Shown: in pieces, positions 109 through 48,344 of the stretch
How the letters are laid out: each line of letters begins with the position of its first letter
Position numbering within the stretch: the stretch's first letter is position 1
DNA from: Escherichia coli
GTDB taxonomy: Bacteria > Pseudomonadota > Gammaproteobacteria > Enterobacterales > Enterobacteriaceae
Strand: one strand, 5' to 3'
Assembly: GCF_003334815.1 (NCBI RefSeq)
Contig: NZ_QOWO01000002.1
DNA length: 64,000 bases
Position numbers and translations under genes: made by a program
Notes under the pieces: model-generated
What the model was told of the DNA's origin: nothing
The model's database searches: none
Seen by the model: only the letters and a program-made list of their open reading frames with translations

Positions 109-379
109 ATGCCACTATCGTAACAAACGCCATGTGCTTACCCTGGCGTCAAGGGTCAATACCTGCAAGAGTGCGTGAAGAGTGGAAAGGGGTCCGCATC
201 CGCGAGCCGCAATATACGCAGGGCTGCAAGAAGATAGAGCGAGCCGCCGTTCAGGTCAACTACTGACGAACAAATCTTTTGCGAAGGGGATTGCAAATCC
301 GACAAAAAGTGGGGTTTTTCAGACCAAAACGCGTTATGCCTGCATGAAAGCAGGAGTGAAGCGGCGTACCGCGACGCCG

Positions 380-508
380 CTATTTATCGGAAGGTTTATC
401 TTGCTGCGGTTTGTTGTTGACCATATCGCACAACATAGAGAGCAGCATTAACCGTACTTTAAAGGGAGAATGACTAAACACGCGCATACACCTCTTGAAC
501 TCATTCAT
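380..508 (-). CDS. mntS: small manganese-homeostasis protein MntS (42 aa), encoded within the rybA transcript
   Basis: Minus-strand ORF ATG(508) to TAG(380) translates MNEFKRCMRVFSHSPFKVRLMLLSMLCDMVNNKPQQDKPSDK, matching my recollection of MntS; too short for the ORF track; sits upstream of mntR as in K-12. Confidence 0.85.
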   Translation of the reverse strand: MNEFKRCMRVFSHSPFKVRLMLLSMLCDMVNNKPQQDKPSDK

Positions 509-565
509 AAGACCTCCTGACTTGCTAATCCCGTCGATCCTTGAGGGATGATTGCATTACATACA

Positions 566-585
566 GATATAGCACAGGCTATATT
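566..585. promoter_or_regulatory. putative MntR operator upstream of mntS (palindrome ATATAGC-N4-GCTATAT)
   Basis: Near-perfect inverted repeat atatagcacaggctatat at 567-584, resembling the ATAGC-N4-GCTAT core of MntR boxes; located about 60 bp upstream of the mntS start codon. Confidence 0.55.
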
Positions 586-693
586 ATATAGCTATTGCTA
601 AAACGTTAATTTTTTGTACCTTCGCAACTCTGGTTTACAATGTGCGCACGAAATGAGAACGCTATGTATGCGTCACCATAATGAGGAAGCACA

Positions 694-1161
694 ATGAGTC
701 GTCGCGCAGGTACGCCAACAGCAAAAAAAGTGACGCAGTTAGTGAACGTGGAAGAGCACGTTGAAGGGTTCCGCCAGGTCAGAGAGGCGCATCGGCGCGA
801 GCTTATTGATGATTACGTTGAGCTGATTTCTGACTTGATCAGGGAAGTGGGGGAAGCTCGTCAGGTGGACATGGCTGCTCGTCTGGGAGTTTCGCAACCG
901 ACGGTGGCTAAAATGCTTAAGCGGCTGGCAACCATGGGGCTGATTGAAATGATCCCCTGGCGTGGCGTGTTTTTAACGGCAGAAGGAGAGAAGCTGGCGC
1001 AGGAAAGCCGCGAGCGACATCAGATAGTCGAAAATTTCTTGTTGGTGTTGGGCGTCAGTCCGGAAATCGCCCGTCGCGACGCGGAAGGCATGGAGCACCA
1101 TGTTAGTGAAGAGACGCTCGACGCTTTTCGTTTGTTTACCCAGAAACACGGTGCCAAATGA
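694..1161 (+). CDS. mntR: manganese-responsive transcriptional regulator MntR (DtxR family), 155 aa
   Basis: Track ORF 694..1161; protein begins [18 protein letters not shown] and matches MntR in length and sequence as recalled. Confidence 0.95.
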
Positions 1162-2276
1162 GCCTGCCTTTTTTACGCACGCTGCAAGGCGATCGTTTTT
1201 TTCAGTTATTAATTCTTGTTGGTATCGGATTAAGCTTTTTCGTGCCCTTTGCACCGAAATCCTGGCCTGCTGCTATCGACTGGCACACCATCATCACCTT
1301 AAGCGGCCTGATGCTGCTGACCAAAGGTGTGGAGTTAAGCGGTTATTTTGATGTGCTGGGGCGCAAAATGGTGCGCCGCTTTGCTACGGAGCGTCGGCTG
1401 GCGATGTTTATGGTGCTGGCGGCGGCGCTGCTTTCTACCTTTCTGACCAACGATGTCGCGCTGTTTATTGTTGTTCCGCTGACTATCACGCTAAAAAGAC
1501 TGTGTGAGATCCCGGTTAATCGGCTGATTATTTTTGAGGCGCTGGCAGTCAACGCTGGTTCGCTACTGACGCCAATTGGCAACCCGCAAAATATTCTTAT
1601 CTGGGGACGTTCTGGTCTTTCGTTTGCCGGATTTATTGCCCAAATGGCACCGCTGGCTGGCGCAATGATGCTGACGCTCCTGCTCCTGTGCTGGTGTTGT
1701 TTCCCTGGAAAGGCGATGCAATACCATACGGGGGTGCAAACACCGGAGTGGAAACCGCGGCTGGTGTGGAGTTGTCTGGGGCTGTATATCGTCTTTCTGA
1801 CGGCGCTGGAGTTCAAACAAGAGCTGTGGGGACTGGTGATTGTGGCGGCAGGCTTTGCGCTGCTGGCACGTCGCGTGGTGCTCAGTGTGGACTGGACGCT
1901 GCTGCTGGTGTTTATGGCGATGTTTATCGACGTCCATTTACTGACCCAGCTTCCAGCGTTGCAAGGCGTGTTGGGTAACGTGAGTCATCTATCTGAACCC
2001 GGGTTATGGTTAACGGCAATCGGTTTATCGCAGGTGATCAGTAACGTGCCGAGTACCATATTGTTGCTGAACTATGTGCCGCCGTCTTTATTACTGGTAT
2101 GGGCGGTAAACGTAGGTGGCTTTGGGTTATTACCCGGATCGCTGGCAAATTTGATTGCGCTACGTATGGCGAACGATCGCCGCATCTGGTGGCGTTTCCA
2201 TCTCTATTCAATACCGATGCTGTTGTGGGCGGCGTTGGTGGGATATGTTTTGTTAGTTATACTCCCGGCCAACTAG
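1158..2276 (+). CDS. ybiR: inner-membrane transporter YbiR (ArsB/NhaD-type permease fold), 372 aa
   Basis: Track ORF; strongly hydrophobic multi-TM protein; start overlaps the mntR stop (ATGA), consistent with an mntR-ybiR operon. Confidence 0.9.
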
Positions 2277-5066: not shown

Positions 5067-5125
5067 GTGATTATCCGTCACCCCGATACTGTCGGGGTGA
5101 CGGCGGCTGATGACAAATGCAAAAT

Positions 5126-5226
5126 AGCCTGATGCGCTACGCTTATCAGGCCTACGCAGTACCTGCAATATATTGAATCTGCAGGACTTTGTAGGCCGGA
5201 TAAGGCGTTAACGCCGCATCAGGCAT
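5126..5226. repeat. REP/BIME element (two inverted REP units with a central palindrome)
   Basis: gcctgatgcgctacgcttatcaggcctac and gtaggccggataaggcgttaacgccgcatcaggc are classic REP sequences; related copies occur at 47205-47302 and 48258-48344. Confidence 0.85.
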
Positions 5227-5306
5227 TAACAAAGCGCATTTGTCAGCAATCTGAGTAACGTCGAATCGATTTTCTTAATCCCACATCAATTCACTTCCAT
5301 TAATTC

Positions 5307-35469: not shown

Positions 35470-35488
35470 TAGATAAGTTTTAGATAAC

Positions 35489-35567
35489 AAAAAACCCATC
35501 AACCTTGAACCGAAATGGCGGGGTTGATGGGCTCCACAAAATGGGGACATCAAAGAAAAGCAGTGGC
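35489..35567 (-). ncRNA. rybB: sigma-E-dependent small RNA RybB (about 79 nt)
   Basis: Minus strand reads GCCACTGCTTTTCTTTGATGTCCCCATTTTGTGGAGCCCATCAACCCCGCCATTTCGGTTCAAGGTTGATGGGTTTTTT, matching RybB as I recall it, with its terminator hairpin and U-tail; lies between rcdA and ybjL. Confidence 0.85.
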
Positions 35568-47154: not shown

Positions 47155-47204
47155 AAAAGCCGCATGTGCGGCTTCAGATTGCTGACAAAGTGCGCGTTGT
47201 TTAT

Positions 47205-47302
<98 letters not shown>

Positions 47303-47352
47303 AATTTTACCTTTGTCATCAGTCTCAAGCCGCGGTTGCGGCTTTCTGAATC

Positions 47353-48257: not shown

Positions 48258-48344
48258 GTAGGCCGGATAAGGCGTCCCCGCCGCATCCGGCACAGGCACC
48301 GTGCTGATGTCTGATGCGACGCTGGCGCGTCTTATCAGACCTAC
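48258..48344. repeat. REP/BIME element (two inverted REP units)
   Basis: gtaggccggataaggcgtccccgccgcatccggca and gatgcgacgctggcgcgtcttatcagacctac. Confidence 0.85.

Follow-up and report, generated by a model that had tools for sequence, protein, structure and literature searches.

The mntS small-protein gene of Escherichia coli, its RybA transcript and its MntR operators in a 64-kb genomic window

MgtS, SgrT and MntS are proteins of fewer than 50 amino acids that are induced by scarcity or stress, bind a transporter and alter its activity (PMC4361602, PMC12529367). MgtS and SgrT are unrelated to MntS in sequence, and differ from it in their targets and in their regulators. MntS is made when manganese (Mn) is low, and its forced expression in high Mn phenocopies loss of the exporter MntP (PMC4361602). 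Deletion of mntP is epistatic to overproduction of MntS (PMC4361602), and binding between MntS and MntP has been found both by two-hybrid assay and by reciprocal co-purification (bioRxiv 10.1101/2023.06.02.543501). That report also describes self-association of MntS with Mn (10.1101/2023.06.02.543501). The protein itself has been followed by targeted mass spectrometry (PRM), in which the peptide VFSHSPFKVR was found in low-Mn wild type and was absent in an mntS deletion, and its abundance is given as ~6000 copies per cell (PMC12529367). A PmntS-egfp fusion showed repression by Mn only with MntR present (PMC9806134).

Taken together with the layout described below, the locus would operate as follows. 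With sufficient cytoplasmic Mn, MntR, the product of the divergent gene 185 bp away, would be loaded with Mn and would bind two adjacent inverted-repeat boxes. Box 1 would cover the end of the -10 element and the transcription start and box 2 the promoter spacer, and binding of MntR would block transcription. As Mn falls, the promoter would be freed, and a strong AGGAGG site on the mRNA would direct synthesis of the 42-residue protein. MntS would then bind the MntP exporter and inhibit Mn export, and the intracellular Mn pool would rise. Translation of MntS, repression by Mn and MntR, and binding and inhibition of MntP are drawn from the literature. The identity of the gene, conservation of its frame, purifying selection, the sequence, conservation and placement of the operators, and similarity to the SitA signal peptide come from the present analysis.

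The DNA analyzed here (the window) is a 64-kb stretch that can be aligned over its whole length with E. coli K-12 MG1655 (NC_000913.3, 852490-916489); the two are 99.986% identical and differ by 7 mismatches and 2 gaps. The first 2.4 kb of the window is matched in 5423 of 5426 complete E. coli genomes. We assign a probability of about 0.95 to the reading that the locus near its start is E. coli mntS, with RybA as its transcript and with operators for MntR. The biology of this locus is already known in detail and nothing in it is new, and an initial annotation made from the DNA letters was right to treat mntS as known biology. The features of the locus, in window coordinates, are the following:

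380..508, minus strand: mntS coding sequence, 42 codons with ATG start and TAG stop (ORF list, RefSeq b4705, NF033226 and conservation)
513..518, minus strand: Shine-Dalgarno sequence AGGAGG, 4 nt 5' of the mntS ATG (read from the sequence)
567..584, no strand: MntR box 1, perfect palindrome ATATAGC-ACAG-GCTATAT (pattern scan, conservation, core common to mntH and mntP)
586..603, no strand: MntR box 2, imperfect, ATATAGC-TATT-GCTAAAA, in the mntS promoter, where it falls between the -35 and -10 regions (pattern scan, conservation across genera)
583..588, minus strand: putative -10 hexamer TATAAT of the mntS/rybA promoter (read relative to the annotated rybA 5' end; position conserved)
236..575, minus strand: RybA transcript, the mntS mRNA, 340 nt (ncRNA rybA b4416 annotation, NC_000913.3)
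361..380, minus strand: GC-rich hairpin GCGGCGT-CGCGGT-ACGCCGC, which starts at the last base of the mntS stop codon (conserved)
182..451, plus strand: spurious 89-aa ORF with GTG start, antisense to the 3' end of mntS and to the 3' part of RybA (ORF list)
694..1161, plus strand: mntR, Mn-sensing DtxR-family regulator (NF008273, 269 bits against a cut-off of 153; RefSeq)
1158..2276, plus strand: ybiR, putative anion transporter (ORF list, RefSeq and family search)

The gap between opgE, which ends at 108, and mntR houses mntS. Both mntR and ybiR are on the plus strand and are transcribed divergently from mntS, across an intergenic region of 185 bp that contains box 1. The initial annotation had mntS followed by mntR and ybiR; the adjacency holds in window order, but the two genes are divergent from mntS and not downstream of it. 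Compared with mntS of E. coli K-12 (b4705, on RybA), the window product is identical to the translation of the RefSeq K-12 coordinates, the gene sits between opgE and mntR as it does in K-12, and the operators are the same; there is no difference, and the window carries the type member. ybiR starts within the last 4 nt of mntR (ATGA, 1158-1161), an arrangement that suggests translational coupling of the Mn regulator with a transporter of unknown substrate.

The ORF at 380..508 on the minus strand translates as MNEFKRCMRVFSHSPFKVRLMLLSMLCDMVNNKPQQDKPSDK, and RefSeq annotates mntS (b4705, 'small protein MntS') at exactly these coordinates. Its product scores 96 bits against the NCBIfam equivalog model NF033226 (small_MntS), for which the cut-off is 36, over residues 1-39 of 42, and the peptide VFSHSPFKVR corresponds to residues 10-19 of the window ORF. 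A database search with MntS returned 136 relatives; nearly all of those that have a source name are called MntS. PF26599 is present in all 120 relatives listed of the 136, and the hosts include Escherichia, Salmonella, Citrobacter, Klebsiella, Enterobacter, Kosakonia and Kluyvera among others.

For comparison, 80 loci were taken from one-genome-per-species contigs using MntR as the query. Loci were fetched by mntR and not by mntS because selection by the tested feature was to be avoided. Two loci without upstream sequence were left out, and 78 informative sequences, the window included, remained from ~25 enterobacterial genera. Of the 78, 77 have an intact ORF of 41-44 codons, from ATG to stop, that is divergent from mntR. 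It lies 162-191 nt upstream of mntR in all but one of these 77 loci (185 nt in the window), and AGGAGG stands 4-5 nt 5' of the start codon in the window and in each of the 11 other loci whose upstream sequence was inspected. Across 40 ungapped codon columns of 76 distinct nucleotide sequences, 23 columns vary at codon position 1, 17 at position 2 and 37 at position 3, and the summed pairwise pN/pS is 0.24 (pS 0.55, pN 0.13). Sixteen residues of MntS are invariant (M1, N2, E3, R6, C7, V10, F11, H13, S14, P15, F16, V18, R19, L20, L22 and K33). Judged from these substitutions, purifying selection on the mntS frame at the protein level is clear. The RefSeq entry, the family match and the intact frame in related loci all bear out the claim of the initial annotation that a real 42-codon gene lies on the minus strand at 380..508. 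Conservation of the frame in relatives, by which that claim was to stand or fall, clearly favours a gene.

Two of the comparison loci depart from the common arrangement. Citrobacter sp. R56 (L015, 2381-2400) is the sole informative locus without mntS. Similarity to the window ends there in the middle of MntR box 1 and gives way to unrelated AT-rich DNA, which suggests that a natural rearrangement at the operator removed or displaced mntS. In Leclercia adecarboxylata NCTC13032 (L040, 2150-2410), MntR box 2 is interrupted by the insertion of a ~250-bp repeat whose core (AGTGAATCCCCAGGCGCTTACTGAAGTCAGTGACGGGGGTG) is ERIC/IRU-like. This insertion parts the mntS -10 region from the upstream promoter region and from mntR, leaving a gap of 432 nt as compared to ~185.

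The sequence at 567-584, ATATAGCACAGGCTATAT, is a perfect inverted repeat with two 7-nt arms around a 4-nt spacer. Its core, ATAGC-N4-GCTAT, has a single exact occurrence in the 64-kb window (569-582), with a one-mismatch copy adjoining at 588-601. When up to two mismatches are allowed, the 18-mer pattern matches in the window solely at 567-584 and 586-603; in shuffled sequence the pattern averaged 0.13 matches, and none of 100 shuffles reached two. Box 2 (586-603) has one mismatch in the 14-mer core and two in the 18-mer. An alignment of 74 distinct mntS-mntR intergenic sequences is nearly invariant over 566-584 and strongly conserved over 588-602. The same core lies upstream of the two further K-12 genes under MntR control, at mntH as AAACATAGCCTTTGCTATGTTT (L085, 1724-1737) and at two sites of mntP as ACATAGCTTAGGCTATAT and TTTAGCCAAAGCTATGTTT (L086, 2310-2323 and 2270-2283). 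The palindromic MntR-type box that the initial annotation had placed at 567-584 is thus perfect, unique in the window, conserved, and common in its core to mntH and mntP. Based on motif sharing and conservation, we regard 567-584 and 586-603 as candidate MntR boxes.

The operators of E. coli MntR at mntH and mntP have the same inverted-repeat core as mntS, whereas the flanks differ, being ATAT at mntS and AACAT at the other operators. The arrangement also differs, in that the two boxes of mntS adjoin each other over the core promoter, as fits repression, and mntP has two boxes ~370-420 nt 5' of its ATG. At mntP, MntR is described in the literature as an activator. The MntR sites at mntS were reportedly first defined by Waters in 2011.

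The annotated 5' end of RybA (575) falls within box 1, and 7 nt before this start the minus strand has a TATAAT (588..583) that overlaps both boxes, so that bound MntR would occlude the promoter. Operator placement is compatible with repression, and from it we infer the -10 and -35 assignment and promoter occlusion. The -35 element is poor, and a consensus promoter scan did not call the mntS promoter, which was placed instead by the annotated 5' end and by conservation. On the side toward mntR, the conserved blocks TTGTAC (614-619) and TACAAT (636-641), 16 bp apart (window 613-641), look like a divergent mntR promoter. Box 2 ends 10 bp 5' of this putative mntR -35, and autoregulation of mntR via box 2 is conceivable. 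At mntH of K-12, the MntR box (1724-1737 in L085; region 1688-1777) lies inside the newly annotated 29-aa ypeD (b4819), which overlaps the mntH start.

Descent of MntS from a SitA signal peptide has been proposed (10.1101/2023.06.02.543501); MntS would then derive from the signal peptide of a SitA/YfeA-type periplasmic Mn-binding protein. We carried out a one-pass profile search with 28 MntS sequences against 1.84 billion representatives. It returned only 35 matches, mostly short proteins, which indicates that the MntS family is narrow. A 147-aa protein (P0150) that is a clear SitA/YfeA N-terminal fragment was reached in this search with an E value of 5.9e-4. Its residues 31-144 match Yersinia YfeA structures (PDB 6q1c and 5uxs, E ~6e-46), and its signal peptide (FSHSPFRLRLMLVGMM...) is 41% identical to MntS residues 11-42. 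SitA/YfeA signal peptides resemble MntS in the motif FSHSPF-x-(V/L)RLML and in length, and both proteins take part in Mn homeostasis; MntS differs in being without the AxA cleavage site and the entire mature binding domain. Full-length SitA proteins were not reached in the one-pass, uniterated search. When P0150 was used as a tblastn query, no relic of the mature SitA domain was found 3' of mntS in the window, and the signal-peptide part alone matched. At the level of sequence similarity, the core of the proposed origin from a SitA signal peptide is reproduced here.

The transcript of mntS is annotated as 340 nt, and a 205-nt form of RybA has been described (PMC4361602). The hairpin at 361-380, with a 7-bp stem and a 6-nt loop, is kept in 74 of 78 loci, and two Kluyvera loci have a compensatory T:A to A:T change in the stem. 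A T-rich tail follows the hairpin in 52 of 69 non-Escherichia loci, typically TTCATTTTTCTG, and makes it a textbook terminator. When window 349-380 on the minus strand is set against L009-L083, the T-tract in most genera reads TTCATTTTT, whereas the tail in all five Escherichia sequences (the window and four others) is TTCACTCC or CTCACACC, with TTCACTCC in the window. A run of T directly after the stem is absent in the window (TTCACTCCTGCT), and a consensus terminator scan called none at mntS in the window because the T-tract is missing. By this comparison, the mntS hairpin is the stem of a terminator that in Escherichia has lost its T-tract by decay. Replacement of the T-tract may result in read-through to the long RybA form, and its decay may lie behind the coexistence of the 205-nt form with the 340-nt annotation. 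It could further be hypothesized that read-through in Escherichia runs into a lineage-specific 3' extension (ending at ~236) with a riboregulatory role, so that RybA would be a dual-function RNA with a new 3' part and an old coding part; we consider this unlikely.

A regulatory role has also been considered for RybA as a whole, namely that it is mainly or additionally a noncoding RNA that represses aroF and aroL under peroxide stress, with the ORF secondary or the RNA bifunctional. The locus is indeed annotated as a 340-nt ncRNA, rybA, and loss of the terminator T-tract in Escherichia implies a longer 3' extension. RybA-dependent repression of aromatic amino acid genes is credited to Gerstle et al. 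2012 in a later source (PMC11878033). However, the folding energy of the 340-nt RNA equals the shuffled mean (z = 0.00), with no sign of special global structure; Rfam gave nothing at the gathering threshold over 236-575, and has no curated RNA family for RybA; and the sequence beyond the hairpin is not conserved between genera. The mntS ORF is under protein-level purifying selection, with a codon-position pattern that is inexplicable by an RNA-only role, and the MntS protein has been detected (PMC12529367). We therefore rate a mainly or additionally regulatory RybA as quite improbable. An additional RNA function is possible, and is unsupported by conservation in the sequences compared.

The reading of the locus as a protein-coding gene leaves the action of its product to be considered. 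MntS might act not on MntP but as a Mn chaperone or buffer, supplying Mn to MntR and to client proteins. This was the early hypothesis; MntS aids MntR in repression of mntH, and a 2021 review called its mode of action unknown (PMC8632737). Invariant Cys7 and His13, together with nearly invariant Cys27, are possible metal ligands, and the Mn-dependent self-association mentioned above would also suit such a role. These points are outweighed by the epistasis of the mntP deletion over MntS overproduction (PMC4361602), by the MntS-MntP interaction in two-hybrid and reciprocal pull-down experiments, and by the presence of MntP in every complete genome with MntS (10.1101/2023.06.02.543501). A chaperone or buffer role in place of inhibition of MntP thus appears very unlikely, and inhibition of the exporter remains our preferred account of MntS function.

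The 89-aa GTG-start ORF (182..451, plus strand) is the only ORF of at least 60 aa in the opgE-mntR gap, and the length-filtered ORF track displays it, and not mntS, because only the 89-aa ORF reaches 60 aa. The initial annotation held that the track misses the real mntS and reports a spurious antisense ORF instead; the 60-aa length cut-off accounts for the first part, and the second agrees with the following results. No NCBIfam family matched the 89-aa product, and RefSeq has no annotation at 182..451. In its frame, another E. coli (L005) has an open stretch of 31 aa; two Escherichia sp. have 31 and 29 aa, E. albertii has 60 aa, and most other genera have 0-45 aa, so the frame is broken even in other Escherichia. 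The ORF overlaps mntS over 24 codons only, in codon-aligned antisense with second codon positions opposed, and the rest of it covers sequence beyond the mntS hairpin that is not conserved between genera. By this distribution, it is a chance open frame of the K-12 lineage. That it should be the true gene and the 42-codon minus-strand frame incidental has next to no probability, since its standing as the longest ORF in the gap and the sole one above the cut-off is set against a GTG start with no convincing ribosome-binding site, the missing family match and annotation, an open stretch that is interrupted in relatives, a remainder that lies over poorly conserved 3' sequence, and a substitution pattern that agrees with the minus-strand mntS frame; as a gene it was rejected, being practically refuted by non-conservation.

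As a 42-codon gene concealed by a length filter, the mntS locus serves as a calibration point only: the 60-aa cut-off of the ORF track hides an experimentally characterized 42-aa regulator. mntS is a textbook example both of metal-transporter tuning by a small protein and of gene birth, which here would have started from a signal peptide. These points have all been published, and the finding makes no open question more testable.

The initial annotation had extrapolated from mntS to similar small genes hidden in other intergenic regions of the window. This extrapolation draws no support from the K-12 annotation or from a crude screen, though neither excludes it. Apart from mntS, no CDS below 85 aa lies in the window in the current K-12 record, and that record already holds small genes of the ribosome-profiling era elsewhere, for example ypeD. 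About 6.8 kb of the window is unannotated, and our screen covered ATG-initiated ORFs of 15-60 codons outside annotated genes (n = 61). A perfect, well-placed AGGAGG precedes two of the 61, namely mntS and an out-of-frame 18-codon ORF (448..504) that uses the same site.

Other elements in the window include an inverted pair of 149 bp, 87% identical, at 5107-5254 and 47174-47322. Each copy contains a match to Rfam ES036 (CssrF), at 5148-5190 on the minus strand and 47239-47281 on the plus strand, and a naRNA4 match lies at 48261-48341. The 149-bp pair and the ES036 and naRNA4 matches are probably repeat elements of the REP/BIME type. The small RNA RybB is located at 35486-35564 on the minus strand (Rfam RF00110, 105 bits); the K-12 annotation places it between rcdA and ybjL.
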